A stretch of DNA of 64,000 bases from a virus (Duplodnaviria; Heunggongvirae; Uroviricota; Caudoviricetes). Both the position numbers and the translations under genes were made by a program. Positions within the stretch are counted from its first letter, which is position 1. Each line of letters starts with the position of its first letter. The stretch lies in IMG/VR virus record IMGVR_UViG_3300021388_000002; one strand, written 5' to 3'. This document shows, piece by piece, positions 35,448 to 54,022 of the stretch. Below the pieces are notes generated by a model. That model searched no databases, was not told the DNA's origin, and saw nothing but the letters and a program-made list of their open reading frames with translations.

Positions 35448-35463
35448 GGGCGCCCGGAATTTT
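35448..35463. promoter_or_regulatory. 16-bp palindrome TTCCGGGCGCCCGGAA, copy 1
   Basis: intergenic, directly 5' of SD of gene 35200..35424. Confidence 0.6.
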
Positions 35464-35469
35464 CAGTTC

Positions 35470-35865
35470 TCAGCCTGCGCTGTCGCTGCCACAGGGCGGC
35501 CGGTTGATGCTGGTGACCGGGCGCTGCCGCCAGAACCCGGCCGGCTTGCGGGTGCGCCGGGCCGCGAAGTCCACGTGCGTGACCTGATCGGGAGCCGGCT
35601 CGGGCGGCCCGGCGGCGGGGATGAGCACGACGCCGTTGTCTGTGATGTCCTTGCCGTGCTCGTAGACCCGGATGACCCGGGTGACCCGGCCGCGCGTGAC
35701 CGTGACGACCTGGCGGGCCGCATAGCCCGGGTCGCCCGACAGGTGCAGGGCCTCTGACAGGGCCTCGCCCATCCCGCCGAGGTTGTCGTTGTAGTAGCAG
35801 GGCTTTCCCGGCTCAAGGCCGGGCTCAACCGCGTAGTAGCTGCCCACCCGGGCCGTCGCCGTCAT
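35470..35865 (-). CDS. hypothetical protein
   Basis: GAACAGGAGACACC ATG. Confidence 0.45.
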   Translation of the reverse strand: MTATARVGSYYAVEPGLEPGKPCYYNDNLGGMGEALSEALHLSGDPGYAARQVVTVTRGRVTRVIRVYEHGKDITDNGVVLIPAAGPPEPAPDQVTHVDFAARRTRKPAGFWRQRPVTSINRPPCGSDSAG

Positions 35866-36266
35866 GGTGTCTCCTGTTCGTGAGTATGCGGCTGGAGGTC
35901 GTTGCAGTCGGGGCAGAGCCCGTACAGGGCCCGGATCAGCCGCAGGTCCAGGTTGCCGGGCTCGGCCGGCGGCACGCATGCGGCGGTGTGCTCGCCGTGC
36001 CCGTGCCAGGGGTTCGTGCAGTAGACCCGGCTCCCGGGTCCTGGTGCGCTCACCGGGCTCGCACCTGCGCGGGCTGCGGCCAGGCCGTGAGCGCGGCCAT
36101 CACCATGCAGCCTTCCCGGTGCCCGCGCAGGTACGTGAAGGTGGCGTCCAGGGAGGGCGTCACCATGGGCCGGGGTGGCAGCCCTGCGATGCCCGTGGTG
36201 AACCCGAGCCGGTATTCCGAAGCCGTCTCGCCTGGGCTGCCGTGCCGGCGCGTGCTCATGTGACAT
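35862..36266 (-). CDS. hypothetical protein; two overlapping minus frames (35862..36266 and 36050..36259) suggest frameshift or two genes
   Basis: ORF track; C-terminal part CTNPWHGHGEH...CPDCNDL plausible. Confidence 0.3.
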   Translation of the reverse strand: MSHEHAPARQPRRDGFGIPARVHHGHRRAATPAHGDALPGRHLHVPARAPGRLHGDGRAHGLAAARAGASPVSAPGPGSRVYCTNPWHGHGEHTAACVPPAEPGNLDLRLIRALYGLCPDCNDLQPHTHEQETP

Positions 36267-36504
36267 CCACCCAGTGCATGATGACGCTCAGCGCCTCGTC
36301 GTAGGACTCTGACGCGAAGACCTGGCGGCGCAGGTGGTCCGCGGCCTCGCGGTAGCCCGCGCGGGTCAGCGCCTGGGCCGCCTTGCCCATGACGGCGCCG
36401 ATGCTGGATGAGCAGCCGGTGCTCAGGTGCACCGTGACGTCCGGGTGCAGCGGCTGCTCCGGGTCGGCGTCCTCGTAGCCGGGCGGCAGCGTGAATGCCG
36501 TCAT
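36256..36504 (-). CDS. hypothetical protein
   Basis: GAAGGGAGCCTGACC ATG. Confidence 0.4.
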   Translation of the reverse strand: MTAFTLPPGYEDADPEQPLHPDVTVHLSTGCSSSIGAVMGKAAQALTRAGYREAADHLRRQVFASESYDEALSVIMHWVDVT

Positions 36505-36506
36505 GG

Positions 36507-37088
36507 TCAGGCTCCCTTCATGGTCAGGTACCAGCGGATGGTGCCGGGCGGGTCCCACTCGCTGGTTTCATCGCACGCCAGCCCCGCGGCCTTCATCCGG
36601 TCCAGCTCGGCTTGCACGGTGCCCGGGTGGTGGCGGGCCCGGTTCGCGAGCTGTGTGCTGGTCATCCGCGGGCTGGCTGGCCCGCCCGATGGTCCCATCA
36701 GGTGGGCGGTGATCTGGCGGCGCAGCGTGGCGCTGAAATCTGCCTCGTGCGCCCAGTCCGCGCCGCCGCCCAGGGTGATCACCGGCTCGCCGCAGGTCTC
36801 GCAGGTGCCGCGCAGCGGGTACTCGCCTGGCTGCGCGCCCGCCGTGATCAGCCTGCCGTTCTTCGTGCGCAGGTTGCCGCTCATCGGGTGCGGGCTGTGC
36901 GCCGGGACCTCCGGCGGGGCGATCCGCAGCTGGTAGACGCTCTCGATGTGCGCCGTGTCCTCGCGGTACCGGCGCAGCTCGGATTCGATGTTGCTCAGGT
37001 GATTCCTGGTCGCCTGGGCCAGCAGATCGTGCCGCTCAGCCTCGGCGGCCAGGATGATCTCCTCGCGGGTGGGATTGCTGGTGCTCAT
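36507..37088 (-). CDS. hypothetical protein with C-terminal winged-helix-like segment
   Basis: GAACAGGAGACACAGCG ATG. Confidence 0.5.
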   Translation of the reverse strand: MSTSNPTREEIILAAEAERHDLLAQATRNHLSNIESELRRYREDTAHIESVYQLRIAPPEVPAHSPHPMSGNLRTKNGRLITAGAQPGEYPLRGTCETCGEPVITLGGGADWAHEADFSATLRRQITAHLMGPSGGPASPRMTSTQLANRARHHPGTVQAELDRMKAAGLACDETSEWDPPGTIRWYLTMKGA

Positions 37089-37363
37089 CGCTGTGTCTCC
37101 TGTTCTGGTGTGATGGTGCCCATCTCGGCGGCTGTCCAGCGCTGGAACAGCCGGCCGCCGCTGGGCTCGCCGCGCAGTACCCGGACGCCCGGGATACGGG
37201 CAGCCTGCTCAGCCAGCCGGGCAGGGATCTGGTAGTAGCAGCCGTGCGGCCAGCCGTGCTCCGGCCAGATGCCGTACTCGCGGCCGGGGTCGCGCACGAC
37301 GCGGCGCAGGCGGTCCCGGCTGCGGTGGCTGGTGGTGGATACCCAGACCGCGGGCTCCGTCAT
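37085..37363 (-). CDS. hypothetical protein
   Basis: CAGGAGACCTC ATG. Confidence 0.45.
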   Translation of the reverse strand: MTEPAVWVSTTSHRSRDRLRRVVRDPGREYGIWPEHGWPHGCYYQIPARLAEQAARIPGVRVLRGEPSGGRLFQRWTAAEMGTITPEQETQR

Positions 37364-37536
37364 GAGGTCTCCTGTCCTGGCGGGCGCCGCTCGCCGTAGG
37401 GGCGCTGTGGCTCCCAGCGGTTCTGGCGCTCGGGGTGGCTTTCCTCGTAGCGCTGGTTGCGGGCCTGGCCCTTCCGGCTGGTGTTGTACCGGCGGTGCCG
37501 GGCCAGGTACTTCTCCCGTGCGGGGTCCGCGGTCAC
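37360..37536 (-). CDS. small basic protein (58 aa, GTG start)
   Basis: CAGGAGAGCCC GTG; high GC3; not in ORF track. Confidence 0.35.
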   Translation of the reverse strand: MTADPAREKYLARHRRYNTSRKGQARNQRYEESHPERQNRWEPQRPYGERRPPGQETS

Positions 37537-37847
37537 GGGCTCTCCTGATCCGGGCGGTCAGCGGATGCGCCCAGCCGTGCGGCCTGCGTGCGGGCCCAGG
37601 CTGTGATCGCGCCTGCCTGGCCGTCATAGTCATGTTCCTGCCAGTACGGCCAGGTACCCGTGCCGTGTCGGGCCAGCGTCGTGCGGATCGCGTGCTCCAG
37701 GTACGCGGTGCTGTAATGCCCGCTCAGATCCCAGCTTTCAGAGAAGGCGCAGTAGCTCAGGATCTCGGCCAGATCCGTGGCGCTCAGCCGGTGCTCAGCC
37801 CGGACGGTGACCCGCCGCCTGCCGTCCCGGCTCAGCGTCCACTTCAC
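37533..37847 (-). CDS. hypothetical protein (GTG start)
   Basis: GATCAGGAGACGCA GTG. Confidence 0.45.
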   Translation of the reverse strand: MKWTLSRDGRRRVTVRAEHRLSATDLAEILSYCAFSESWDLSGHYSTAYLEHAIRTTLARHGTGTWPYWQEHDYDGQAGAITAWARTQAARLGASADRPDQESP

Positions 37848-38071
37848 TGCGTCTCCTGATCGTGATCGTCGCGGAACTGCTCCGGTACCAGACTCGTCAG
37901 CGCGATGACGTCAGCCGCGGCGCAGGCCGCTTCGTCCAGGTGCGCGTCCATGTCGGCCTGGCGCCGGATGATCTGCCGCCGGGCGCGCCAGGAGGTGAGG
38001 GGCTCGCCGGGCTTGCGGGCCGGGCCGGGAAAGCGGAATTGCTGCCCGGTGGCGTGATGGATCATGGTCAT
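37844..38071 (-). CDS. hypothetical protein
   Basis: GATCAGGAGAATCCCACC ATG. Confidence 0.45.
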   Translation of the reverse strand: MTMIHHATGQQFRFPGPARKPGEPLTSWRARRQIIRRQADMDAHLDEAACAAADVIALTSLVPEQFRDDHDQETQ

Positions 38072-38123
38072 GGTGGGATTCTCCTGATCGTGGTAGCGCG
38101 GGCGCAGGTGATCGTGTCAGATG

Positions 38124-38139
38124 TTCCCGGCGCCCGGAA
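38124..38139. promoter_or_regulatory. palindrome variant TTCCCGGCGCCCGGAA, copy 2
   Basis: flanks GATG...GATT; 3' of 38146 stop, about 50 nt upstream of the 38071 start. Confidence 0.6.
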
Positions 38140-38145
38140 GATTGC

Positions 38146-38628
38146 TCAGCCGGTGTACGGCGGCTCGCTCGTGCACTCGCCCGCGTGGTGGGTGCCGCAG
38201 CCGCGCGGCGGGATGCTGGCCGGGTCGGTTGTGCGGACGGTGCGCAGTGCCCGCTGGCGGTCATCCTCGTCAGCGAACGCATCTGACAGGGCGACCGCGA
38301 GCACAGCCTGGGCCAGTGCGCGGCGGGTTGGCCCGTACTCGGCTACGGCGGCCAGCACGATGCCCAGCGCGAGGTCATCCGCTGCCTGGAGGTCGGCCGC
38401 GTACTGGGTCACCGCGCGCCAGGCGTCTTCCCGGCTGGGCTCGGTGCCGCCATCCAGGACCGTGCCGTCCTCGCGGCGGCGGATAACCCACTTTGTCTGG
38501 CCGTCCAGCCCGGCGGCGGTGAATGTGCTGGCGTAGCCCTGCGTCCGCAGCCACGCCTGAGCCGCGATGGCCGCCTCGCTGAGCTGGCGGTCCGGGTCTG
38601 GTGGCGCGGCGGTTACCGGGGTGCTCAT
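38146..38628 (-). CDS. hypothetical protein
   Basis: GAGGAGGCGGCCCG ATG. Confidence 0.5.
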   Translation of the reverse strand: MSTPVTAAPPDPDRQLSEAAIAAQAWLRTQGYASTFTAAGLDGQTKWVIRRREDGTVLDGGTEPSREDAWRAVTQYAADLQAADDLALGIVLAAVAEYGPTRRALAQAVLAVALSDAFADEDDRQRALRTVRTTDPASIPPRGCGTHHAGECTSEPPYTG

Positions 38629-38954
38629 CGGGCCGCCTCCTCGCGCAGCTCCCGGGCCAGGTCGCGCAGATTGGCGGTGGTGCGGGTTACCCGGCGCACG
38701 ATCGGGTCGCTGTCGTTCAGGCATTCCTCGATCGCCGTTATCCGGTCCGCCAGGGCCAGCAGGGAGCAGTCCCGGCTGAGTTCTGGCCGGGAGCCGTACC
38801 GCAGCCAGTTCTCCATGTGCTGCTCCAGCGTGACGCCCTCGGGCTTGGGGCCGATGCCTGCCTGGTTCATCCAGCGCAGCCCGAGCGTGCCCTCGCGCAG
38901 CATCGTGCTGAACGCCAGCGCCAGCCGTGTGGTCATGTCCTGCTGTGCGGTCAT
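38625..38954 (-). CDS. hypothetical protein
   Basis: GAACAGGAGGAACCCCG ATG. Confidence 0.5.
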   Translation of the reverse strand: MTAQQDMTTRLALAFSTMLREGTLGLRWMNQAGIGPKPEGVTLEQHMENWLRYGSRPELSRDCSLLALADRITAIEECLNDSDPIVRRVTRTTANLRDLARELREEAAR

Positions 38955-39041
38955 CGGGGTTCCTCCTGTTCGTTAGGACGCGCTGGCCCGCACCGCGTGA
39001 TGCGGGCCAGCGCGAATGTGATCAGACGGTGACGGGCTCGG

Positions 39042-40451
39042 CTAGCGCGGTGCCGTGGCCGCCATCATCGCGACCGTGGGCAGGCTGGACCCGTGCGCCA
39101 GGGGCGCTGCCGGGAGGGTGACCGGCTCGGCCGTGGCCGGTGCCAGGCTGTCCAGCTCGGCCGGCACGGTGCCCGGCTTGAACTGGGCCAGCACGTCCTC
39201 GCCCGTGACCGCGCCGCTGGCGACGGCAGCGCTCATCCGGGCGGCGTGCACCACGACCAGCGGGTGCTTGCCGATCAGGACCGGCGGGCTGGCGTTCTCA
39301 GCCATCGGGTCGCAGCTGCTGCCCGGGGTGGCTGGGCAGTCCGGGCAGGGCGCTGCCAGCAGCGTGCCGGTCAGCTCTGCCCGCTCGGCCGCGTCCTGCT
39401 CCTGCTCCGTCCCGGTGGTGAACTGGCCGTGCCGCGGGCGCTGGCGGATGCCGTTCCGCTTGCGCGGGCGCTGCGGGATGGGCTCCGCGGCCGGCAGCGC
39501 TGGCGGTGCCGCGTCCGTCTCGCCCGGCAGCCGCAGGCCACCCGTGGACGCCTGGTCATCGGCGCGCAGCCGCACCGTAGCCGAGGTCACCCAGATGGGC
39601 GGCGCGTCCGGCAGCGGCTCGCCGGTCTCCGGGTCGGTGTCCGGCTGGTGCCACCCGATCGGCTCGATGGTGTACGCGAACGAGTCCGGCAGCGGCCCGC
39701 ACTTGACCTTCTCCGCGATCACCGTGGCCGACCGGCTGCCGTCCGTGCTCTCCAGGTCTGGCTCGATCCCGAACACGAAGTCCGAGGAAGCGAACAGCCG
39801 GGAGCCGGGCAGGCGCTGCGGCTCGTTGCCGCGCCCGCCGTTCGGGTGCGCGATCGCGATTACCAGGCAGTCCAGCTGGGCCGACAGCCACTTCATCCCG
39901 AGCATGAACCGGTTGGCGCTGGTGTCGTTAGCCAGCGACAGGCCGCCGAAGTCCGCCGCGCTGTCCAGGATGACCAGCTCCAGGTCCGGCAGCTGGCCCA
40001 TCTCGGTCGCCGCCCGGCGCAGCGCCCGCGTCGGCTCCATCTGCGGGCTGACCGGCACCGCGAACGCCTCCGTCATGAACTTCAGCCGCACGTCGGTGTA
40101 GGGCGGCTGGGCCGCCAGCCACGCATCGGCCGCCGCCTGGCCGTCCCGGCGGGCGATCTCGGCCGCCCGCGCCATCCGGTCATGCTGCTCGCGGATCAGC
40201 CGGGCCTGCTTGCGGACTCCCGCGTCGTACAGGCCCTCACCGAGGCAGTACGCGACCATGCCCCGGATGGTCGCCCGGCCGAGGAACGGGGTGCCGTTGG
40301 CGACCGCCAGGCCCAGTTCCTGGCCGATCACCAGGGACTTGCCGTAGTACGACGGCCCGTAGACGAACCCCACGCCCACCCGGGGGAACAGCCCCTCGAC
40401 CAGGAAGTCCGGCGGGGTGATGTCCAGGTCGTCAGCGTTGATCAGAGGCAT
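39042..40451 (-). CDS. AAA_25-type RecA-like ATPase (RepA/DnaB-like fold)
   Basis: GFVYGPSYYGKS Walker A; VILDSAADF Walker B-like. Confidence 0.65.
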   Translation of the reverse strand: MPLINADDLDITPPDFLVEGLFPRVGVGFVYGPSYYGKSLVIGQELGLAVANGTPFLGRATIRGMVAYCLGEGLYDAGVRKQARLIREQHDRMARAAEIARRDGQAAADAWLAAQPPYTDVRLKFMTEAFAVPVSPQMEPTRALRRAATEMGQLPDLELVILDSAADFGGLSLANDTSANRFMLGMKWLSAQLDCLVIAIAHPNGGRGNEPQRLPGSRLFASSDFVFGIEPDLESTDGSRSATVIAEKVKCGPLPDSFAYTIEPIGWHQPDTDPETGEPLPDAPPIWVTSATVRLRADDQASTGGLRLPGETDAAPPALPAAEPIPQRPRKRNGIRQRPRHGQFTTGTEQEQDAAERAELTGTLLAAPCPDCPATPGSSCDPMAENASPPVLIGKHPLVVVHAARMSAAVASGAVTGEDVLAQFKPGTVPAELDSLAPATAEPVTLPAAPLAHGSSLPTVAMMAATAPR

Positions 40452-40584
40452 GTCCTGTCTCCTGTTCTGTGAAATCGTGCGGCGGGGTCCGTGCGTACAC
40501 GATGACCGCCGCGAGTGCGGTGCCGAACGCGCCCGCGCCCAGCAGGGCGCAGCCCGCGATGAGCAGGGCGTGGATCACGCGCGC

Positions 40585-40974
40585 CTACCAGTCCACCCAG
40601 TCCGGCAGTACCCAGACCGGGTCGTGGTCGCCGCTCTTGCGGAGCTGGCGCGCTTCCTCCGGGGTGGCCGGGCAGTCCGGCAGCGCGTGCCACACCGTCT
40701 CGCCGCTGGCCGTGACGACCGTGGGGATGGCGTTTTGCTCGCCATAGGGCCGGAACGGGGTGCTCGGTGTGGTGTCGGCGGTGTCATAGTCCAGCGAGAC
40801 GACCAGGATGCCGTCCCGGATGTAGACGTAGACCTGGACCCCGCCGACCTCTACGCACGGCGGGCAGTAGGTGGCGCTGTCCTCGCCGTCCGGGTCCAGC
40901 CGGGACGGGTAGTAGATAGCCGCCTCATTGGCCTGGCGCTCGCTGGCGGGCATGCTGCCCTCGAAGTAGCTCAT
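40585..40974 (-). CDS. hypothetical protein
   Basis: palindrome then GATCAGGAGACACAGGCA ATG. Confidence 0.5.
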   Translation of the reverse strand: MSYFEGSMPASERQANEAAIYYPSRLDPDGEDSATYCPPCVEVGGVQVYVYIRDGILVVSLDYDTADTTPSTPFRPYGEQNAIPTVVTASGETVWHALPDCPATPEEARQLRKSGDHDPVWVLPDWVDW

Positions 40975-41002
40975 TGCCTGTGTCTCCTGATCGTGGTGAA
41001 TG

Positions 41003-41018
41003 TTCCGGACGCCGGGAA
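41003..41018. promoter_or_regulatory. palindrome variant TTCCGGACGCCGGGAA, copy 3
   Basis: flanks AATG...GATC; 28 nt upstream of ATG at 40974. Confidence 0.55.
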
Positions 41019-41020
41019 GA

Positions 41021-41449
41021 TCACGGTTCGCGCAGCTCGCGGAGCGTGTCCGGCGGTTCCGGGTCATCGTCTAGCTCGCCCGCTTCATCGGCGGCCAGGA
41101 CCCGTGCGATGTGCGGTGCGGCGGCGTTCAGCTCCCGGCCGAGCTGGGCCAGTGCTCGCTCACCCGCCGCCCGCCGCTCGGCCGGGGTCATCTCGCTCAG
41201 CGGGCGAGACCTGGCCAGCCGCTGGGCGCGCTCTTGCAGTTCCGCCGCCGTCTTCGGTGCGGGCGCGTGCCCGGTCCTGATGGCCCACAGTCCTGACTGG
41301 CCGATCCGGCTGACGCCGCCTGGGCCGTCTGCGATGCCCGCTTCCGGCAGCGCGGCGCTGAGCACGTCCCGGACCGCCTGGCGGGCGGCTGAGCGGGCAG
41401 GCGCGTCAACCTCGATGAGGACTGTGGTGGATACGTGCCAGATGGTCAT
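41021..41449 (-). CDS. hypothetical protein
   Basis: AATAGGAGACCGC ATG. Confidence 0.5.
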   Translation of the reverse strand: MTIWHVSTTVLIEVDAPARSAARQAVRDVLSAALPEAGIADGPGGVSRIGQSGLWAIRTGHAPAPKTAAELQERAQRLARSRPLSEMTPAERRAAGERALAQLGRELNAAAPHIARVLAADEAGELDDDPEPPDTLRELREP

Positions 41450-41457
41450 GCGGTCTC

Positions 41458-41610
41458 CTATTCGCCGCGCAGCTGCCAGCGCAGCCGCGACATGGTGTTG
41501 CTGTAGGTGATGGCGGTCTGGACTTCGTCCGCGCTCAGCGTGCCGCAGGTCCGGAAGAACGCCAGGTACTCGGATAGCGACCAGGGGTAGGTCGCGTGTG
41601 GCCGGGTCAT
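41458..41610 (-). CDS. small hypothetical protein (50 aa)
   Basis: TGATG coupling; high GC3. Confidence 0.3.
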   Translation of the reverse strand: MTRPHATYPWSLSEYLAFFRTCGTLSADEVQTAITYSNTMSRLRWQLRGE

Positions 41611-42693: not shown

Positions 42694-42709
42694 GGGTCAG
42701 CTCTCCTGT

Positions 42710-43104: not shown

Positions 43105-43482
43105 TCAGCTCTCCTGTCCGTGAAGTTCCGGGCGCCCGGAAGATTGCGCTGTGACGGTGGCCAGCAGGTCGGGCAGGATCTCCCAGGCCCGCCCGGTCCA
43201 TTCGGCAGGGTCGCCCCAGGACAGCGTCCATTCATCCAGCCGCACGTGCCGGGTGGTGACGCGCCGTCGCCCGCGCCCGCGCCGGGCCAGGATCTCAGCG
43301 CGGGTCTGCGGGCCGTCGATGTCCAGGTACCGGCCGTCTGGCATCAGGTTGAAGGCGTGGCCGCCTGGGCCGAAGCCATCCCGGAACGCTGCCACTGGCC
43401 AGCTCGTGGCTTCCTGGACTACGGCAGCCAGCAGGAAGCACGCGCCCCGGGTGAAGCCGTCCCGGTCCTGCTCCGTGATCAT
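43105..43482 (-). CDS. hypothetical protein (C-terminal codons SSGRPEL encode the palindrome)
   Basis: GGAAAAGGACAGCCA ATG. Confidence 0.45.
   Translation of the reverse strand: MITEQDRDGFTRGACFLLAAVVQEATSWPVAAFRDGFGPGGHAFNLMPDGRYLDIDGPQTRAEILARRGRGRRRVTTRHVRLDEWTLSWGDPAEWTGRAWEILPDLLATVTAQSSGRPELHGQES
43126..43141. promoter_or_regulatory. palindrome TTCCGGGCGCCCGGAA, copy 4
   Basis: GAAG...GATT; overlaps C-terminal codons of 43105..43482. Confidence 0.6.
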
Positions 43483-46777: not shown

Positions 46778-46793
46778 TTCCCGGCGGCCGGAA
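46778..46793. promoter_or_regulatory. palindrome variant TTCCCGGCGGCCGGAA, copy 6
   Basis: upstream of DUF4232 gene. Confidence 0.55.
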
Positions 46794-46800
46794 GATCCGG

Positions 46801-47091: not shown

Positions 47092-47100
47092 GGCTGCCTC

Positions 47101-47235: not shown

Positions 47236-47262
47236 ATGATGCGTCTCCTGATCGTGTGAATG

Positions 47263-47278
47263 TTCCGGGCGCCCGGAA
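47263..47278. promoter_or_regulatory. palindrome TTCCGGGCGCCCGGAA, copy 7
   Basis: GAATG...GGTC; upstream of ATC-start small ORF. Confidence 0.6.
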
Positions 47279-47285
47279 GGTCTGG

Positions 47286-47510: not shown

Positions 47511-47537
47511 GCTTGCCTTCCTGTTCCTGTGTGAATG

Positions 47538-47553
47538 TTCCGGGCGCCCGGAA
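47538..47553. promoter_or_regulatory. palindrome TTCCGGGCGCCCGGAA, copy 8
   Basis: GAATG...AGTC; 27 nt upstream of ATG at 47510. Confidence 0.6.
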
Positions 47554-47555
47554 AG

Positions 47556-47876
47556 TCAGGTCGTTTGCGCGCCCTGGGTTGTGATCCGGGCGAACAGCCG
47601 CGCGGCTTGCGCCCAGGCCAGGCCGCTGCTGACCTCGTAATCGGTGTCGATGGACCAGCGGCTGAGCAGCGGTGCCCAGCGAGCCCGGAACACGCTGTAG
47701 CGCGGGGCAGCGTCAGGCAGCCGGGCTGCGCGTCCGGTGCTCTCCGTCCGGGTGATCACGGTGAACGTGAAGTCCACCCGGCCGGAACTGGGCAGGTGCC
47801 GGAACGCTGAGACGACTTCCTCGCCGTGGATAGCGGCAGGCATGGTGTAGGGGCTGGGTGTGGTGCTGTTGCTCAT
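47556..47876 (-). CDS. hypothetical protein
   Basis: GGACAGGAGACATCATC ATG. Confidence 0.45.
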   Translation of the reverse strand: MSNSTTPSPYTMPAAIHGEEVVSAFRHLPSSGRVDFTFTVITRTESTGRAARLPDAAPRYSVFRARWAPLLSRWSIDTDYEVSSGLAWAQAARLFARITTQGAQTT

Positions 47877-48133
47877 GATGATGTCTCCTGTCCGGTGTCT
47901 GGTGTCCGCTCAGCGCCGAGCGCCCAGCGGGTGCTGGTGAAGGGCCGGATTGTGGTGAGGTCTGTTACCCGGATGATCCGGCCGAGGCTGGCCCGGCCTG
48001 CGATCCAGCGCCGGTTTATCTCCGTGTCCGCGTCAGCCTGCGTCATCCGGGGCAGGTTCCTGATCAGCTCATGGGTGGGGTGCCGGCAGCCGTCCAGGAT
48101 CACGTACTCCTGTACGGGCTCGATCCGGTTCAT
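47873..48133 (-). CDS. hypothetical protein
   Basis: GATCAGGAGACATC ATG. Confidence 0.45.
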   Translation of the reverse strand: MNRIEPVQEYVILDGCRHPTHELIRNLPRMTQADADTEINRRWIAGRASLGRIIRVTDLTTIRPFTSTRWALGAERTPDTGQETSS

Positions 48134-48405
48134 GATGTCTCCTGATCTGCTTGCTTGATGGCGTCAACGACTGCGAGATACGCGGCGTAAATGGACTCGG
48201 CCGCAGCCGTGGCTGCTTCCTGGCCGGTGTGCTGGGTGACGTGCGGCTCAAAGCCGGGGATGCGCGCGGTCAGCGTCACGCCGTGCTCGCCGTCCGCGCG
48301 CTCGATCCGGAACCAGCCCATGCGCAGGATCATGACCCGGACGGGCCGGCCTGTCTCCGGGTGCGTGACCCGTGAGTCCAGGACAGCCCGCAGGGTGGCG
48401 GTCAT
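48130..48405 (-). CDS. hypothetical protein
   Basis: ATGA coupling. Confidence 0.45.
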   Translation of the reverse strand: MTATLRAVLDSRVTHPETGRPVRVMILRMGWFRIERADGEHGVTLTARIPGFEPHVTQHTGQEAATAAAESIYAAYLAVVDAIKQADQETS

Positions 48406-48710
48406 GACACCAGCGCGGTCAGCCAGCTCAGCGCATCGCGGTAGCCGAGCCCGTGCCGCCCGCCGCTGGCCGGGCTGGTGACCGCCGCGCTGTCCGGAAC
48501 CTCCTGCCAGGTTCTGCCGTCGTGCATGATCCGGTGCACGGTGAACGTCTGGTGCCCGGCCGGGCTGGTGCGCTTGACCACGATGACGTGCTGCCAGCGG
48601 GGCGAGTCCAGGTGCACCGGGCAGCGTGCGGCGGCGACTACCGGGTTACCCCTGAACTCGTCCGGCGGCGCCAGCGTGGGGATGCTGGCCTGGCTCATGG
48701 TGTCGGGCAT
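48402..48710 (-). CDS. hypothetical protein
   Basis: CAGGAGACAGGAGACATCACT ATG. Confidence 0.45.
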   Translation of the reverse strand: MPDTMSQASIPTLAPPDEFRGNPVVAAARCPVHLDSPRWQHVIVVKRTSPAGHQTFTVHRIMHDGRTWQEVPDSAAVTSPASGGRHGLGYRDALSWLTALVS

Positions 48711-48737
48711 AGTGATGTCTCCTGTCTCCTGGTCAGT

Positions 48738-48897
48738 GGCTGCCCAGCGGCCCGGCCGGGCCGATGTCCTCGCCCTTAGCCAGCCGGATGGCCAGCGGGG
48801 ACCAGCCCAGCGCGACCAGCGTCTGCTCGGCGTCAAAACGCGCGCTCGGCCCGGACAGCGGGCTGTGCAGGGTCTGCGCAGCTTCCAGCTCGGTCAT
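48738..48897 (-). CDS. small hypothetical protein (53 aa)
   Basis: doubled SD GAACAGGAGACAGGAGACAC ATC ATG. Confidence 0.3.
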
Positions 48898-48924
48898 GAT
48901 GTGTCTCCTGTCTCCTGTTCGTTG

Positions 48925-48940
48925 TTCCGGGCGGCCGGAA
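48925..48940. promoter_or_regulatory. palindrome variant TTCCGGGCGGCCGGAA, copy 9
   Basis: upstream of 48738..48897. Confidence 0.55.
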
Positions 48941-48943
48941 AAT

Positions 48944-50458
48944 TCACTCTGCTGTGGTCAGTTCCAGCTGCGGCCATCGCGCTGCGCACCGGGTGCACAC
49001 GCCTGCCCATGCCCGGCTGGCGCGGTGCCGGACAACGGGCGGCGTGCCCGGGATGAGGGAAGCGGCTGGCTCATGCAAGTTCACCGGCTCGCCCTCATAC
49101 GGCTGGCCGTCCTCGCCGCACTGGATGCAGCCCACCACGGGCTCGTCCGCGTAGTGAGCGGTGATGATGTGCTGGCCGAACGTCCATTCACCGCACCGGA
49201 TGCAGCCCTGGCAGCCCTGCTCGGCGTGCCAGTGCTCCGGGTCACCGGGGGCATCGGTTAGCTGTGCGCTTTTCTCGCGGGCCTTCTTCCGGCCGTTTTC
49301 CTTGGCCTGGCCGACATCAAACACGATCTGGCCGGATATCGTGCCCGGCCCGGTGCTGCTGTCCGGGTAGCGCTTTGCGAGGTACTGGCCCCAGCTGACC
49401 TGATCAGGCGTGCCCGGGAACGGTGGCCGGCTGCCATTTTCCCGGCGCCCGGAAGATCCCCCGTCCTCCGCGCGGGCCGCCTCGTCCTCCGCGCGCCGTG
49501 CCAGCCCGGCCGGCGTGTAGCACTGGCAGCTGTCTTCCAGCTCGTAGCAGTCATCGCATGCCCCGCACACACGGCAGTACCGCGTGACGGGGTCCACCGC
49601 GCCCGGCTCGTTGCAGATCCAGCAGTCCTCACCCGGGGCGCCGTCGTAGGCCCAGCTGGCGCTGTACCGGCCATAGCTGGCACTGTAGCGGTCGCTGGCC
49701 TCCCACACATCCGGGTCGTGCGGCATGGGCGTGCCGGCGTTCTGTTCGTGGAACCGCAGGTACTTGCCCACCATCGCGAACGTGTCGTTGAGGTAGGCGT
49801 AGCCGCGCTCGGAGTGATAATCGCCCCGGTACCCGACGCCCCAGTTGAACGCCTTGGCGTTCAGGTGCTCCAGGGAGGCGATGTCGGAGAAACTGCCGCT
49901 GCCCATTGCTGCGCCGCTGGCTTCCACGAGCCCGCGGCTGGCCCGGTCTTCGTACTGGTACATCACGACATCCGTGCCGCCGCGATCGAATTCGATGATC
50001 CAGTCATACTCCTTTTCCGGCTTGAAGAACTCGGCCGTGGACAGCCCGGATTCCTCGCCCACGGTGAGCAGCCAGTCGCAGGTAAGGCCCAGCTTCGGTA
50101 GCAGGTCCAGGATGACGTACGCGCCGAGGCGGTCATCCAGCGCGCCCGAGACGATCAGCGGCCCGTTTTCCGTGGTCCGGAAGCGCGGCACGCGGCGCTT
50201 GCCCGCCACGACCGTGTCCAGGTGCGCGACCGCCAGCACGCGCGCGCCGTTGTCCTTGAAGTGGTAGTAATCTTCCGGGCGCCCGGAATCTCCCGGGTAC
50301 CGCAGGTACGGTGCTGGCTGGCTCACGTGGACGGTCTGCATCCCGAAGGCCCGGCCGAACCGGTCTTCCCGCAGGGTGCAGATACGGGCCAGTGCGTCCT
50401 GGCTGTACGCCTGCCGGATCTTGCGGATATCCCGGCTGCGCGCACGGTTCTTGCGCAT
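48944..50458 (-). CDS. M20/M42-like metallopeptidase domain fused to C-terminal zinc-ribbon modules
   Basis: AVAHLDTV, GALDDRLG, TVGEESG motifs; C-terminal CWICNE..CRVCGACDDC..CQC and CQGCIRCGEW..GCIQCGEDG. Confidence 0.55.
   Translation of the reverse strand: MRKNRARSRDIRKIRQAYSQDALARICTLREDRFGRAFGMQTVHVSQPAPYLRYPGDSGRPEDYYHFKDNGARVLAVAHLDTVVAGKRRVPRFRTTENGPLIVSGALDDRLGAYVILDLLPKLGLTCDWLLTVGEESGLSTAEFFKPEKEYDWIIEFDRGGTDVVMYQYEDRASRGLVEASGAAMGSGSFSDIASLEHLNAKAFNWGVGYRGDYHSERGYAYLNDTFAMVGKYLRFHEQNAGTPMPHDPDVWEASDRYSASYGRYSASWAYDGAPGEDCWICNEPGAVDPVTRYCRVCGACDDCYELEDSCQCYTPAGLARRAEDEAARAEDGGSSGRRENGSRPPFPGTPDQVSWGQYLAKRYPDSSTGPGTISGQIVFDVGQAKENGRKKAREKSAQLTDAPGDPEHWHAEQGCQGCIRCGEWTFGQHIITAHYADEPVVGCIQCGEDGQPYEGEPVNLHEPAASLIPGTPPVVRHRASRAWAGVCTRCAARWPQLELTTAE
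49439..49454. promoter_or_regulatory. palindrome variant TTCCCGGCGCCCGGAA, copy 10 (intragenic in peptidase gene)
   Basis: encodes GGSSGRRENG. Confidence 0.5.
50273..50288. promoter_or_regulatory. palindrome TTCCGGGCGCCCGGAA, copy 11 (intragenic in peptidase gene)
   Basis: encodes DSGRPED. Confidence 0.5.
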
Positions 50459-50649
50459 CGGATCAGTCCTTTCTCAGCCAGCACCTCAGACAGCCGGCGG
50501 TGGATGACAGGCCCCGGATCGGCGGGGCAGTGCCCGCAGCTACAGCCGGGGTAGTGGATGAGGTTCAGCCGGCATGCCTCGCACGGCTCGCCGGGGCGGG
50601 TGTGGAATACCCAGGTGATCTCGCTGCCGGGGCCGTACAGCCTGCGCAT
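50323..50649 (-). CDS. small Cys-rich ORF (MRRLYGPGSEITWVFHTRPGEPCEACR...) with no stop before overlapping the next gene; 3' end uncertain
   Basis: palindrome 13 nt upstream of ATG at 50649; high GC3 for the first ~70 codons. Confidence 0.3.
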   Translation of the reverse strand: MRRLYGPGSEITWVFHTRPGEPCEACRLNLIHYPGCSCGHCPADPGPVIHRRLSEVLAEKGLIRCARTVRAAGISARSGRRTARTHWPVSAPCGKTGSAGPSGCRPST

Positions 50650-50662
50650 GGTGCGCCGGGTC

Positions 50663-50678
50663 TTCCGGGCGCCGGGAA
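50663..50678. promoter_or_regulatory. palindrome variant TTCCGGGCGCCGGGAA, copy 12
   Basis: after stop of 50684..52345; 13 nt upstream of ATG at 50649. Confidence 0.55.
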
Positions 50679-50683
50679 TTTTC

Positions 50684-52345
50684 CTAGGCATAAGCCGGCT
50701 CCCGCCCCTGCTCGGCGGCATACAGGCTGGCGTGCCGGTCGACGTACAGGTTCAGGTCGCGGTCGGCGTACTGCGCCGTGATGTCCTCGGGCGCAATGAG
50801 GTAGCCGCCTGAATTGACGTACATCGGCGAGCAGGAGAAACCGATCTTGCGGTAGGTCCAGCCCGTCATCTGCGCCATGACCCGGGCCGGCGCGTAGCCG
50901 CTCAGGTCGCCGTAGCCGTTGAACACTACGAACGCGTCCGGGGTCCCGGTGCTGAACGTCGGGGTCAGGTTCCCCTGCTCGGTCTTCCGCAGCGGCATGA
51001 CCCAGGCCCGGCCAGTCACGTGGCCGTAGCTGTCGCTGCTGAAGGACCGCAGGCCGAGGCCGCCGTTGGTCTTCAGTGCGCAGCGGCTCTCGCGGTAGTC
51101 GGCCCACCAGCACGAATCCTCGTGATAGAAGTCCGCCGCGCTCATGTTCAGGTCCCGGGTGACCTCGATCGCCACGTCGGCGCCCGTGCTGTGCTCGCGC
51201 GCGAGCTGGCCGACGTGTGACATGGCCTCTGCCGGCAGCTTGAGCTGGAACCGCTGGTAGGCAAGGCGGCTCAGCCGCTTGGCGTAGTTCCCTTCCCTGG
51301 TCTGCCACTGGTCGCCCAGCGCGTCCAGGTAGTAGCTCAGCGCGCGGTACTCGCCGGCGCCGCCGTAATAGCGCAGGTACCGGCTGATTTCCGCCAGGCC
51401 GTCCGTTGAGATGGTGCCCGCGGGCAGCTCGATCGTGACCCGCGTGTCGTTCGCCAGCCAGCCGTCGCCGTTGCGGATCGTGAATTCCTGCTGCGGCGAT
51501 TCACAGCAGCCGTCGTCGCTCTCGTCGTGGTCGTGGTAATCGGCGTCTTCGTCTTCGTAATACCCGTCGCAGTCCTCGCACCATGAGTAGTAGCGGTCGC
51601 GGCAGCGGTCGCAGACGGTGTTCCCGTTCAGCATCCCGTTGACGCCATCGGACGGGAACCGGCCGTCGCAGCTGTCGCAGCTGTACCAGTCATCCCAGCA
51701 CGCCTCGCAGATGTCGCTGCTGCCGTTCTCGGCCGAGCGCAGGCCTGATTCCCATTCCGGATGGGCGCAGTTATCGCACCAGCCGAGGTCATCGATCTCA
51801 TCCGGGTCCCGGACCAGCGTCCGCAGGTGCTCCGCGAAATCATCCTGCGCCGTGGAGTAGCGGGGGGGCTGGAACGCGCCCCATAGCTCGGCCAGGTCCA
51901 GGTCGCTCGCGTCCGGGGTGCGGTTGCGGCCATACCGGTCGTCGCCGTCCTCGTCGTAGCCCTCGCGGTCGTAGCCATCGCGGTCGTAGCCAGCCGCGCT
52001 GTAGCCATCGCGGTTGTAGCCGTCCGCGTCATAGCCGAACGTGTCGTAGCCGTCCGTGCCGTAGCCGGCGTTCAGCGTGAGCTGGCCGTCAATGTTCCCG
52101 GCGCCCGGAACTTCTCCCGGCTGGCTGCGCGGGCAGTCCGCCGGGACGTGGAACGCGGTTGCGGTGACGCCAGTCAGGAACCATGTCTCCAGGTACCCTT
52201 CGGCGTTGCGCCGCTCGATCGGGGCGTAGAACCCGTCCGCGCTGACCGGCAACGTCTCGCCAAGCCGGCGCCAGATGAGGCACGGCAGCCCGTCCTGGTG
52301 CTCATGGAACTCATTGGCCGTCATGGCCTGGTTACGCGTGATCAT
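50684..52345 (-). CDS. large hypothetical protein with GYD(x)DGY repeats and Cys-rich treble-clef-like modules
   Basis: GYGTDGYDTFGYDADGYNRDGYSAAGYDRDGYDREGYDEDGDD; CDNCAHPEW, CEACWDDWYSCDSCDG, CDRCRDRYYSWCEDCDG; GACCAGGAGACATC ATG. Confidence 0.55.
   Translation of the reverse strand: MITRNQAMTANEFHEHQDGLPCLIWRRLGETLPVSADGFYAPIERRNAEGYLETWFLTGVTATAFHVPADCPRSQPGEVPGAGNIDGQLTLNAGYGTDGYDTFGYDADGYNRDGYSAAGYDRDGYDREGYDEDGDDRYGRNRTPDASDLDLAELWGAFQPPRYSTAQDDFAEHLRTLVRDPDEIDDLGWCDNCAHPEWESGLRSAENGSSDICEACWDDWYSCDSCDGRFPSDGVNGMLNGNTVCDRCRDRYYSWCEDCDGYYEDEDADYHDHDESDDGCCESPQQEFTIRNGDGWLANDTRVTIELPAGTISTDGLAEISRYLRYYGGAGEYRALSYYLDALGDQWQTREGNYAKRLSRLAYQRFQLKLPAEAMSHVGQLAREHSTGADVAIEVTRDLNMSAADFYHEDSCWWADYRESRCALKTNGGLGLRSFSSDSYGHVTGRAWVMPLRKTEQGNLTPTFSTGTPDAFVVFNGYGDLSGYAPARVMAQMTGWTYRKIGFSCSPMYVNSGGYLIAPEDITAQYADRDLNLYVDRHASLYAAEQGREPAYA
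52095..52110. promoter_or_regulatory. palindrome variant TTCCCGGCGCCCGGAA, copy 13 (intragenic)
   Basis: encodes VPGAGNI in 50684..52345. Confidence 0.5.
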
Positions 52346-52387
52346 GATGTCTCCTGGTCATCGGGTAGTGCTGGATTGAGTGAATGT

Positions 52388-52403
52388 TCCGGGTGCCCGG
52401 AAG
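52388..52403. promoter_or_regulatory. palindrome variant TTCCGGGTGCCCGGAA, copy 14
   Basis: GAATG...GATC; intergenic. Confidence 0.55.
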
Positions 52404-52408
52404 ATCGG

Positions 52409-52660
52409 TTATGAGGCCATCTGGCGGCCGGGCAGGGGCTGCCACGCGAACCCGTGGCCAGCCGGCTGGCAGATCTGCCAGTGCCCGCGGTATTCCCGCG
52501 TGTTGCCCCAGTCGTCCACCGTGCACCGCATGATCCGGTGATGCGTGGCCGCCGCGTGGTGATGCGGCGCGCGGTGATGCGTGACCGCCGCGTGCGCGAT
52601 GCTGGCGGGAACCAGCGCGGCCAGGGCCAGCGCGAGGATAACGGGCAGCCTGGTCAGCAT
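52409..52660 (-). CDS. small secreted His-rich protein (signal peptide + THHRAPHHHAAATHHR)
   Basis: GAACAGGAGACACAC ATG; N-terminal LPVILALALAALVPASIAHA. Confidence 0.5.
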   Translation of the reverse strand: MLTRLPVILALALAALVPASIAHAAVTHHRAPHHHAAATHHRIMRCTVDDWGNTREYRGHWQICQPAGHGFAWQPLPGRQMAS

Positions 52661-52691
52661 GTGTGTCTCCTGTTCTGCTGTGGCCGGGAAG

Positions 52692-52707
52692 TTCCGGCCG
52701 CCGGGAA
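52692..52707. promoter_or_regulatory. palindrome variant TTCCGGCCGCCGGGAA, copy 15
   Basis: intergenic. Confidence 0.55.
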
Positions 52708-52786
52708 AATTCAGCCTGGCTCATCAGCGCGCGGCGGCAAACCCGCGCGGACGGGCACGTGGCCCGTTTCGCCTGGTCCGGGGACG

Positions 52787-53005
52787 CTAGCCGATGTGGT
52801 GCGTGACCCAATCGGGCGCCGTGCCGCCGACGACCGTGATGCGGTAACCCAGCCTGCGGATTGCTGCCAGGTCGGCATCGGTGAACGTCTTGCGCCCGGT
52901 CAGTGCGAGCAGCGCGTGCGCCGTGTCGCATACCGGGTAGACCGCGTCCTTGCCGTACACGCTGCGTACCGTGACCTTGATTTCGACGTTGGCTTGCGTG
53001 ATCAT
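52787..53005 (-). CDS. small hypothetical protein (72 aa)
   Basis: CTCAGGAGACATCAGC ATG. Confidence 0.4.
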   Translation of the reverse strand: MITQANVEIKVTVRSVYGKDAVYPVCDTAHALLALTGRKTFTDADLAAIRRLGYRITVVGGTAPDWVTHHIG

Positions 53006-53031
53006 GCTGATGTCTCCTGAGTCTGTAAGGT

Positions 53032-53060
53032 GGCCGGCCCTAGTGCCGATCGGGCCGGCC
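53032..53060 (-). terminator. 9-bp stem hairpin GGCCGGCCC-(11 nt)-GGGCCGGCC between genes (no U-tract)
   Basis: inverted repeat read directly from sequence. Confidence 0.3.
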
Positions 53061-53104
53061 GGCTGATGCCACGTCGCTAAGGGCACCGTGGCAGGCGGTC
53101 AATG

Positions 53105-53120
53105 TTCCGGCCGCCGGGAA
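53105..53120. promoter_or_regulatory. palindrome variant TTCCGGCCGCCGGGAA, copy 16
   Basis: CAATG...GATT; intergenic next to hairpin. Confidence 0.55.
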
Positions 53121-53138
53121 GATTGCCGCGTGGGCCGG

Positions 53139-53399
53139 CTAGTGGCTGTCACACAGCCAGTTGCCGCCCCATAGGTACGTCTGCGCTCCGCAGACCGGGC
53201 AGTCCGGCGCGACGGCTGAGAAGATCGCATCGGCCACGTCGCCGGCATGCCCGTGCGGCGGCCGGCCGCCCAGCACGATGTGCTTGCGGAGGGAATCGGC
53301 CAGTTCCCGCGCGGCAGCGCGCTGGTCATCGCGCATCGCGGCGCGCATGTCCGCGTACGCCTGGTCAGGATCGAATGCGGGTGCGAGCGTTGCGGTCAT
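53139..53399 (-). CDS. hypothetical protein with C-terminal CPVCG...C..H
   Basis: GATCAGGAGACACCCATC ATG. Confidence 0.45.
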   Translation of the reverse strand: MTATLAPAFDPDQAYADMRAAMRDDQRAAARELADSLRKHIVLGGRPPHGHAGDVADAIFSAVAPDCPVCGAQTYLWGGNWLCDSH

Positions 53400-53434
53400 G
53401 ATGGGTGTCTCCTGATCACTGAGCGCGGCCAGTG

Positions 53435-53450
53435 TTCCGGCCGCCGGGAA
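53435..53450. promoter_or_regulatory. palindrome variant TTCCGGCCGCCGGGAA, copy 17
   Basis: CAGTG...GATC; intergenic. Confidence 0.55.
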
Positions 53451-53456
53451 GATCGG

Positions 53457-53636
53457 TCAGTATGTGCATCCGGCGCCGCTAGGCGGCAAATGGTCCTCTT
53501 GCCGGAGGTCTTTCGCGAATGTGCACGCGTAGTAGTGGTGAAGGCGTGGCGTATGGTCGGCCTTGGCTAGCAGTGCCGTGGCGCCTATGGCCAGGCCAGC
53601 GATGACCAGGCCGGCCGCAATCCAGAAGATTCGCAT
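53457..53636 (-). CDS. small membrane/secreted protein (59 aa)
   Basis: MRIFWIAAGLVIAGLAIGATALLA...; high GC3. Confidence 0.3.
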   Translation of the reverse strand: MRIFWIAAGLVIAGLAIGATALLAKADHTPRLHHYYACTFAKDLRQEDHLPPSGAGCTY

Positions 53637-53752
53637 GGTGCCGGCCGCCTACGCGGGCAGGGAATGCAGGCTGCGGGTACCGTCCGCGTGCGCGACCACG
53701 AACCAGTGCGTAGTGCCGGCGACCCAGCTCTTGACAATGGTGTAGCGCATGG

Positions 53753-53962
53753 TTACCTCACCACCTTGACCAGCGCACCCGTGTTCAGGCATGCCCACGT
53801 AGTGCCGTCCGTGGTTGTGGCCGTCTGGCCGGCCGTGATCGTCCCGCCACCGTCAAACGTGCACGTGACGGGCGTGCTGTGCGCGACGGCCAGCGCGATA
53901 AGAAGCACAATCAGGCCGCCCCATCCTGATAGCGCCATGCTGGTAAGGGATCGCTTGCTCAT
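53753..53962 (-). CDS. small secreted protein (signal peptide)
   Basis: GATCAGGAGACATCACC ATG; ALSGWGGLIVLLIALAVAHS. Confidence 0.45.
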   Translation of the reverse strand: MSKRSLTSMALSGWGGLIVLLIALAVAHSTPVTCTFDGGGTITAGQTATTTDGTTWACLNTGALVKVVR

Positions 53963-54006
53963 GGTGATGTCTCCTGATCTTTAGGGGTCCGGCGGCCGGG
54001 GCAATG

Positions 54007-54022
54007 TTCCGGCCGCCGGGAA
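54007..54022. promoter_or_regulatory. palindrome variant TTCCGGCCGCCGGGAA, copy 18
   Basis: CAATG...GTTC; intergenic. Confidence 0.55.

Follow-up and report, generated by a model that had tools for sequence, protein, structure and literature searches.

Why does one 16-bp palindrome recur between the small genes of a phage genome, and what reads it? We addressed this question in a 64,000-nucleotide stretch of the Caudoviricetes record IMGVR_UViG_3300021388_000002 (hereafter called the window), in which copies of the GC-rich sequence TTCCGGGCGCCCGGAA punctuate a minus-strand block of small genes. The palindrome family is real, strongly nonrandom, conserved, and under selection at the DNA level. 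Tentatively, and at slightly less than an even chance, we favor the explanation that it is a family of duplex DNA sites for a phage-encoded dimeric regulator, most likely a protein of ParB/KorB fold, that would globally control the small-gene block.

Copy number, sequence, and gene context of the palindrome

Allowing at most two mismatches, we found 20 matches to TTCCGGGCGCCCGGAA in the window, compared with 0.07 expected from 100 dinucleotide-preserving shuffles (maximum, 2). This agrees with an earlier reading of the sequence alone (the sequence-only reading), which had described about 20 copies, including 58454 and a degenerate one at 29224, and had asked whether shuffling would reproduce them. 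At this threshold, 18 copies rather than the nineteen first counted lie at 35444-54022, and the first of them starts at 35444, not 35448. No copy was found within 1-29 kb or 59-64 kb. The subvariants, which are spelled here on the plus strand although the coding strand of the block is the minus strand, occurred exactly as had been listed: the perfect form six times, TTCCCGGCGCCCGGAA four times, and TTCCGGCCGCCGGGAA in four consecutive copies (Table 1).

On the minus strand, the unit consists of a stop codon, 2 to 7 nucleotides (nt), (G/A)ATC-TTCCSGGCGSCSGGAA-CAT(T/C), a spacer, a Shine-Dalgarno (SD) sequence (CAGGAGAC), and ATG. The flanks had been called simply asymmetric, but positions -4/-3/-2 (R-A-T) are complementary to +19/+18/+17 (Y-T-A), and the C and C at -1/+16 are the sole break in the extended dyad, which makes the site a 24-bp near-dyad in the window genome. 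Position -3 was A in 19 of 19 copies and position +17 was A in 16 of 19, and no position past +19 was conserved among the window copies. The single orientation attributed to all copies in the block depends solely on a weak flank asymmetry.

Thirteen of the 20 window copies are intergenic, all of them before the SD sequence of the next gene; 12 begin 2 to 7 nt past the upstream stop codon and one begins 18 nt past it. Copy 43126 falls among the last codons of a gene, and the truly intragenic copies number four (52095, 50273, 49439, and 44977) and are read as SGRPE, SGRRE, or PGAGN. The earlier description of copies mostly at gene boundaries, with several inside coding sequence, stands. Across the window and its relatives, 60 of the 85 copies with gene context were intergenic, with the motif starting a median of 7.5 nt past the stop codon and no more than 10 nt past it in 37 of these 60. 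Gaps of the block without the motif contained other, unique hairpins or promoter-like AT-rich sequence.

Conservation in related phages

Relatives were reached through homologues of a RepA-like protein (contigs L001-3 and L121) and of a peptidase-like protein (L131, L132, and L133). Every one of these contigs carried the same family, TTCCG-N6-CGGAA, which occurred at about one copy per kb in five related metagenomic phages; there, the unit runs from a stop codon through the motif and C/G-AT-C-ACC to the SD sequence. With a relaxed match defined as at most one mismatch in the outer TTCC/GGAA and at least five of six stem pairs, L131 to L133 each had 19 to 23 matches per ~19 kb, compared with 0.4 to 0.9 expected. 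After curation, 91 copies in six genomes were retained. Their outer TTCCG/CGGAA arms were nearly invariant, while the proteins were just ~50% identical between genomes. The preferred center differed by genome, being GGGCGCCC in the window, GATCGATC or GGTCGACC in L131, GACCGGTC or GACCAGTC in L132, and GACCGACC in L133; this is concerted evolution of the copies within a genome, as with stoperators and their repressors (PMC6550527).

Orthologous intragenic sites were conserved as well. In all four genomes that have the peptidase gene, a copy occupies amino acids (aa) 50 to 57, directly before a conserved EDYYHF, and is read as SGRPE, SDRSE, or SDRPE. The gene for a 553-aa protein has a copy at aa 79 to 95, again in four of four genomes, and the window differs in reading frame (PGAGN versus SDRPE or SGRSE). 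Because these copies persist while the peptide or the frame changes, selection acts on the DNA motif and not on the peptide. In the more distant relatives L122 to L130, we did not find the motif family, and pattern scans with TTCCSGGCGSCSGGAACAT (viral and metagenome contigs) and TTCCGNNNNNNCGGAACATC (viral contigs) gave single chance matches only, among the matches listed.

Other repeats were seen in some of these distant contigs. L125 has a noncoding array of GTAGTCGACTAC at 167-850 (15 copies within 700 bp), L124, L128, and L129 carry CCACCGATGGG, and CCACCGATGGGCG forms clustered repeat arrays in noncoding regions of L124 (4615-4984) and L129 (43-423). As analogues of the dispersed motif, the repeats of these four contigs were rejected, because they either form clustered arrays or belong to the ribosome-binding region.

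Hairpin or duplex

We examined whether the copies behave as RNA stems or as double-stranded sites. At stem positions 1 to 6 of the sense strand, A.C mismatches outnumbered G.U pairs 29 to 11, and 13 of the 91 copies, mostly the TCAGAA variant of L132 and L133, had a sense-RNA minimum free energy of -3 kcal/mol or weaker; thus, a sense-RNA hairpin is not required. The antisense strand folded better overall than the sense strand (Wilcoxon p = 0.003). Flanking positions +/-9-10 were unpaired in 67 to 75 of the 91 copies, and positions +/-11-12 (GA...TC) were symmetric, a discontinuous flank dyad more in keeping with protein contacts than with an unbroken stem.

A candidate binding protein

The best candidate for a binding protein is the product of the gene at 54441-55244 on the minus strand, labeled FAM11 in this analysis, which is the first gene called downstream of an 855-nt noncoding region at the upstream end of the block. 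FAM11 has a low-complexity N terminus (aa 1 to 29), a ParB/KorB-type DNA-binding domain (aa 30 to 145), and a coiled coil (aa 163 to 191). An AlphaFold2 model built on a 29-sequence alignment had a predicted local distance difference test score (pLDDT) of >90 for aa 30 to 145, followed by a long helix at aa 163 to 191; the single-sequence model had a pLDDT of 43. Foldseek searches with the model again returned ParB/KorB families (1vz0, probability 0.98), with weak E values (0.36 or worse). Sequence searches of FAM11 against the PDB gave no match, and a Pfam scan gave only a weak DUF7310 match and no N-terminal ParB/Srx CTPase domain (GxxRxxA box). In other proteins, domains homologous to the N-terminal domain of FAM11 were fused to Dam methylase, HNH nuclease, or DnaN.

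FAM11 homologues were found in the same place in L131, L132, and L133, that is, in four of four genomes with the region available. Two further contigs picked by FAM11 homology alone, L254 and L255, also bore the motif, and the gene and the motif co-occur in the window, L131, L132, L133, L254, and L255. A motif copy lies upstream of the start of the FAM11 gene at 27 nt in L131 and 23 nt in L255, and in L254 a copy lies inside a hammerhead ribozyme just upstream of the gene. These placements suggest that FAM11 may be autoregulated. Within the block, AT-rich, promoter-like sequences occur only in this noncoding stretch of the window (55244-56100), which also contains a 12-bp palindrome, ACGGGCGCCCGT, whose center is the same as that of the 16-bp motif.

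Other DNA-binding proteins of the window were considered. The two XRE regulators proposed in the sequence-only reading (3192..3761 and 59523..60248) did not hold up as binders, in that nothing connects either of them to the motif (their conservation in relatives was not searched). The MarR protein encoded at 59013-59495 was rejected as a clade-wide partner: it had no close homologue in the relatives, and it looks host derived because its best homologues are bacterial and only ~41% identical. Pfam and PHROG scans of ~60 further open reading frames (ORFs) of the block and its flanks yielded hardly any annotation and no further clear DNA-binding protein, the sole hints being a weak MarR_2 match in 36507-37088 and an Lsr2-like protein at 4202-4636.

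Hammerhead ribozymes beside the palindrome

In the window, an Rfam match to a type II hammerhead ribozyme (RF02276) at 52710-52774 on the minus strand ends 2 nt upstream of copy 52692. In L001 (9417-9499; 41.1 bits), helix III of a hammerhead is made up of the palindrome and its fully complementary flanks, and the same arrangement occurs twice in L254 (1047-1135 and 2514-2604), where both matches are below threshold (26.6 and 30.0 bits) and have a 23- to 24-nt insertion in loop III. L129 carries ~9 hammerhead-like elements at 1065-5627, one per intergenic gap, four of them above the Rfam gathering score. The 83-aa genes that follow the hammerheads in the window and in L001 were unrelated to each other. 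We rejected the palindrome itself as a type II hammerhead, since it does not have the CUGAUGA/GAAA core and sits beside the ribozyme or as an insertion in helix III.

Function of the palindrome

The analogy drawn earlier with stoperators and conserved intergenic palindromes is the best-supported reading, given the five relatives, the genome-specific variants, and the clade-conserved candidate binder of ParB/KorB fold. The palindrome would be a cis-acting recognition site common to a clade of large soil actinophage-like viruses, and a phage-encoded dimeric protein, with FAM11 as the best candidate, would read it as duplex DNA, one monomer per TTCCG half-site of the 16-bp dyad, with the 8+8 geometry of parS and the Noc-binding site (NBS). 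Sites follow almost every short transcription or translation unit of the genome-end-proximal block and recur at intervals inside the two long genes. We infer that their occupancy by FAM11 would let one early protein throttle or stop the passage of RNA polymerase across the block, in a KorB/operator (OB)-like or stoperator-like manner of control.

Several observations weigh against this explanation. Stem pair 6:11 covaries (GC, 39; AU, 37; GU, 5; other, 10), and the association is present within L131 alone (Fisher p = 0.001); a dimer site would not call for such covariation. The sites are oriented, since the TCAGAA change occurred 11 times in the right arm and 0 times in the left and since the sense strand favors C at -1 as well as at +16. 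The coupling of the palindrome to stop codons and hammerhead ribozymes would be more natural for an RNA-level element. With regard to the candidate itself, FAM11 does not have the N-terminal CTPase domain of ParB and therefore cannot be a sliding clamp, its N-terminal domain belongs to a widespread family (579 clusters, of which contigs L254 and L255 were checked for the motif), and the window has no canonical copy directly upstream of the FAM11 gene. The link between protein and site consists of fold, position, and co-occurrence.

The main rival, possible but doubtful in our judgment, is an RNA-level punctuation, in which each copy would form a 6-bp hairpin just past a stop codon that marks the polycistronic transcript for processing or stability. 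It could be a protective stem at the 3' end, with host RNase E cutting at the adjoining AA/CAU, or the target of a sequence-specific hairpin-binding ribonuclease, and the palindrome would then be a protein-dependent counterpart of the hammerheads that relatives place at the same positions. The closeness of the motif to stop codons, the 6:11 covariation, the hammerhead beside copy 52692, the helix III copies in L001 and L254, and the array in L129 all argue for it. Arrays of hammerheads that flank phage genes are on record, with the processing of long transcripts as their presumed role (PMC3088659), and the 3' flank AA/CAU fits the cleavage preference of mycobacterial RNase E, RR/CNU (PMC10641625), in 38 of 91 copies, compared with ~5% expected from base composition. 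The hammerhead association keeps an RNA-level role alive. Against it stand the 13 copies with no stable sense-strand hairpin, the better folding of the antisense strand, the excess of A.C over G.U, and flanks that are not paired at +/-9-10 clade-wide. Furthermore, a generic hairpin needs neither an invariant stem sequence nor genome-specific centers, the mRNAs of the two large genes with conserved internal copies would be cut or stalled, and no hairpin-specific RNase was found. RNase III, which requires about two turns of double-stranded RNA at a processing site, had been offered as an alternative and is unlikely to act here, because the stem conserved clade-wide is only 6 bp. It is also conceivable, though we consider it unlikely, that palindromes and type II hammerheads are interchangeable, sometimes fused, punctuation devices of the early polycistronic RNA. 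A lone hairpin would then be recognized by a sequence-specific factor responsible for setting mRNA ends, and a palindrome in helix III would let the same factor, or a DNA-bound ParB-like protein, gate self-cleavage; if true, this would be a natural protein-regulated ribozyme controlling the gene of the regulator itself.

Quite improbable, in our estimate, is a phage-specific promoter at which a phage-encoded or phage-modified RNA polymerase starts at the conserved C-A-T of the 3' edge and gives each small gene or group its own transcript. Dense promoters are known from the early regions of T7, SPO1, and T4, and N4 uses hairpin promoters. A density of about one site per kb in the genome-end-proximal block, the position always upstream of an SD sequence and start codon, the A conserved at +17, a template strand that folds better than the sense strand (reminiscent of N4), and a single conserved block with genome-specific variants, like the promoters of T7, T3, and SP6, would all fit. 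However, dyad symmetry is atypical of promoters, a promoter at the copy conserved at aa ~57 of one gene would yield a truncated message, and sequences resembling conventional promoters are present in other gaps (TATGATACT at 45320-45422 and an AT-rich stretch at 55244-56100). Among the ~85 window ORFs scanned (64 of 165 kb), there was no phage RNA polymerase or sigma factor. Bacterial promoter types were rejected: sigma-70 sites numbered 0 in the block, with no conserved downstream block and nothing conserved past +19, and for an extracytoplasmic-function-type -35 GGAAC with a downstream -10 there was no second block at a fixed distance and the SD sequence was too close in several copies. The sequence-only reading correctly set the copies apart from canonical intrinsic terminators, as there is no U-tract (the coding-strand 3' flank is CAT(T/C)CAC) and a terminator scan flagged no copy on the coding minus strand, copy 50663 being flagged solely on the plus strand. 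Very improbable, finally, is a recombination sequence at cassette boundaries, a short homology or recombinase target of 16 to 24 bp at which small ORFans are swapped, gained, or lost between coinfecting relatives, similar to the PeSL elements of T4 and the attC sites of integrons. Between the conserved genes at 54029-54361 and 50684-52345, comparison with L131 to L133 showed a hypervariable region, the one closest to the genome end, with different, unrelated ORFans in each genome, each flanked by the motif, and the four consecutive window copies there have one rare core variant in common, while their flanks and intervening genes are unrelated. Such an array fits cassette exchange at repeats, and recombination at Cluster O repeats is documented (PMC4351075), but exchange might just as well arise as a by-product wherever a site is repeated. 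Neither an integrase nor a recombinase turned up in the window, attC is far longer than the element, and the conserved intragenic copies and the purifying selection on the arms point past mere homology. An integron attC (55 to 140 bp, with R/L boxes and an integrase) and a GTAG-type repetitive extragenic palindrome with its RAYT transposase were rejected for an element of only 16 to 24 bp; neither integrase nor transposase was present among the ORFs scanned.

Relation to known multicopy sites

The palindrome is a new form of a known kind of element, to which the Cluster O repeats, the stoperators, the conserved inverted repeats (CIRs) of phiC31, and the KorB-OB system belong, and it is outside each of these families by sequence or geometry. 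Corndog and its relatives, the Cluster O mycobacteriophages, carry a 17-bp repeat, TGTTCGGNNNCCGAACA (TGTTCGG-N3-CCGAACA), whose function is unassigned; its authors proposed a dimeric regulator and noted an association with indels (PMC4351075). Both are dyads with invariant arms and a variable center, present in tens of copies per actinophage genome; both have intergenic, gene-end, and intragenic copies that are concentrated in an operon of small nonstructural genes and are mostly not at promoters. In contrast to the 7+3+7 of Cluster O, the arrangement here is 6+4+6 (or 5+6+5), TTCCG-N6-CGGAA, and the lineage is unrelated, much larger, and uncultured. Only here did we see genome-specific centers, tight coupling to stop codons, a candidate binder of ParB/KorB fold, and associated hammerheads.

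The stoperators of Cluster A phages (L5 gp71 and relatives) are asymmetric sites of 13 to 14 bp that are bound by the monomeric repressor of a temperate phage (PMC9283540, PMC6550527). They resemble the palindrome in their many copies within short intergenic regions away from promoters, in variants that coevolve with the phage's own protein, and in the transcription elongation block proposed for them. They differ in that the site here is a dyad of 16 bp (a 24-bp near-dyad in the window), that the window showed no repressor and no integrase, and that the candidate binder is of a different fold family. The CIRs of phiC31, a 41-kb temperate actinophage of high GC content, are reportedly inverted repeats of ~17 bp, with many highly conserved intergenic copies in the early region, and are said to be operators of a known immunity repressor; their sequence is different.

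ParB-family domains bind multicopy palindromes of 13 to 16 bp, namely, parS, NBS, and OB (PMC7383237, PMC11790492), and KorB of the IncP plasmid RK2 is a global transcriptional silencer that acts by long-range KorB-OB silencing (PMC11790492). As here, the sites of KorB-OB, ParB-parS, and Noc-NBS are multicopy palindromes both between and within genes, and parS and NBS have the 16-bp 8+8 dyad. RK2 carries 12 OB sites. KorB and ParB bind through a dimeric helix-turn-helix domain encoded on the same replicon, and the modeled FAM11 likewise has a ParB-type helix-turn-helix domain. In contrast to them, FAM11 is a DNA-binding-domain fold plus a coiled coil with no CTPase domain, so that neither sliding nor spreading would be expected; the site shows no sequence relationship to parS, NBS, or OB, and no ParA or KorA partner was seen. 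The hammerhead arrays (PMC3088659), with one ribozyme in the window and arrays in relatives, occupy the same punctuating position between small phage genes, but the palindrome contains no ribozyme core.

Multicopy dyad repeats of actinophages, such as those of Cluster O, have been known for a decade, and their function is still to be assigned. The clade described here offers a handle on them, with ~90 sites in six divergent genomes, DNA-level selection, a clonable candidate binder, and a physical link to self-cleaving ribozymes. Confirmation of the candidate would give a phage counterpart of plasmid KorB-style global silencing without a CTP clamp, and an RNA-level role, if true, would show phages replacing ribozymes with protein-dependent processing marks. 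Under either reading, the motif is an annotation marker for early transcription units in large uncultured soil phages, nearly all of whose genes are uncharacterized.

Genome setting and other features

The window is part of a soil actinophage-like genome of ~165 kb, its proteins being found on a metagenomic contig of 164.6 kb, and has a GC content of 67 to 75%. Homologues of its proteins came from soil metagenomes and from metagenome-assembled genomes of Actinomycetota, e.g., Trebonia and Mycobacteriales. Phage and plasmid collections, searched at the DNA level for near-identical sequence, contained no match, and single-protein locus searches of viral and genome collections were likewise negative; the RepA-like protein had no match in plasmids and only a weak Gordonia phage match among phages. 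A plus-strand block at 8-30 kb encodes, besides the exonuclease and the fusion protein of Table 1, an SNF2 helicase, an HD-domain protein, and a GH25 plus PG_binding_1 lysin. In the minus-strand block (30-58 kb), small genes follow one another in a long array, and almost none of them had a Pfam or PHROG match; analogy with other phages suggests that the block is early. Two related contigs of 166 and 140 kb, L132 and L133, stop ~7.4 kb upstream of the peptidase-like gene, equivalent to ~57.9 kb in the window; thus, the array of small genes probably begins at a physical end of the genome. The window contig continues past this point and therefore may represent a circularly permuted genome or an assembly across a terminal repeat.

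Table 1. Palindrome copies and other features of the window
Feature	Position	Strand	Remarks
Degenerate copy, TACCGGGCGCCCGGAA	29224..29239	+	19 nt past stop of plus-strand GH25 lysin gene
Copy, perfect form	35444..35459	-	Intergenic, 3 nt past upstream stop, 2 nt before SD
Copy, TTCCCGGCGCCCGGAA (minus-strand spelling, TTCCGGGCGCCGGGAA)	38124..38139	-	Intergenic, 6 nt past stop
Copy	41003..41018	-	Intergenic, 2 nt past stop
Copy, perfect form	43126..43141	-	Within last ~12 codons of gene 43105-43482
Copy, TTCCCGGCGCCCGGAA	44977..44992	-	Intragenic, 297-aa gene 44427-45320, read as PGAGN
Copy	46778..46793	-	Intergenic, 7 nt past stop
Copy, perfect form	47263..47278	-	Intergenic, 7 nt past stop
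Copy, perfect form	47538..47553	-	Intergenic, 2 nt past stop
Copy	48925..48940	-	Intergenic, 3 nt past stop of peptidase-like gene
Copy, TTCCCGGCGCCCGGAA	49439..49454	-	Intragenic, ~aa 335 of 504-aa peptidase-like gene, directly past conserved domain
Copy, perfect form	50273..50288	-	Intragenic, aa 57 of peptidase-like gene (SGRPE); orthologous site occupied in L131, L132, L133
Copy	50663..50678	-	Intergenic, 5 nt past stop of 553-aa gene
Copy, TTCCCGGCGCCCGGAA	52095..52110	-	Intragenic, aa 79 of 553-aa gene; orthologous site occupied in L131-L133, other frame
Copy	52387..52402	-	Intergenic, 6 nt past stop
Copy, TTCCGGCCGCCGGGAA	52692..52707	-	Intergenic; Rfam hammerhead match ends 2 nt upstream, its CUGAUGA core 13 nt upstream
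Copy, TTCCGGCCGCCGGGAA	53105..53120	-	Intergenic, 18 nt past stop
Copy, TTCCGGCCGCCGGGAA	53435..53450	-	Intergenic, 6 nt past stop
Copy, TTCCGGCCGCCGGGAA	54007..54022	-	Intergenic, 6 nt past stop of gene 54029-54361
Copy, perfect form	58454..58469	Not assigned	Near probable genome end
Type II hammerhead ribozyme	52710..52774	-	RF02276, 48.8 bits (gathering score, 37); directly 5' of copy 52692
FAM11, candidate binder gene	54441..55244	-	267 aa, isoelectric point 9.8
Phage exonuclease (phrog_1674)	8791-11652	+	953-aa ORF, apparently split by intein/LAGLIDADG homing endonuclease
Fusion of PrimPol, DUF5906 helicase-like domain, and family A DNA polymerase (PolA)	18008-23863	+	1951-aa ORF

The promoter-like TATGATACT in the gap at 45320-45422 lies between GTATA/TATAC inverted repeats and is followed by a GC-rich hairpin; this gap is likely an internal host-type promoter with an operator. 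ARAGORN called a 93-nt tRNA-Gly at 39163-39255 on the minus strand, within the RepA-like ORF, whose GC content at third codon positions is 0.95; the call is probably a false positive. Sequence of higher GC content at 59013-60248 holds the MarR gene on the plus strand and an XRE/HTH_31 gene on the minus strand. Near the probable genome end there are two tandem repeats, one of 24 bp at 56227-56430 (8.5 copies) and one of 38 bp at 56527-56728 (5.3 copies, 96% identical). Tandem arrays that are analogous to, but different from, those at 56227-56728 are present in relatives, and the repeats may represent iterons, an origin, or some terminal element.

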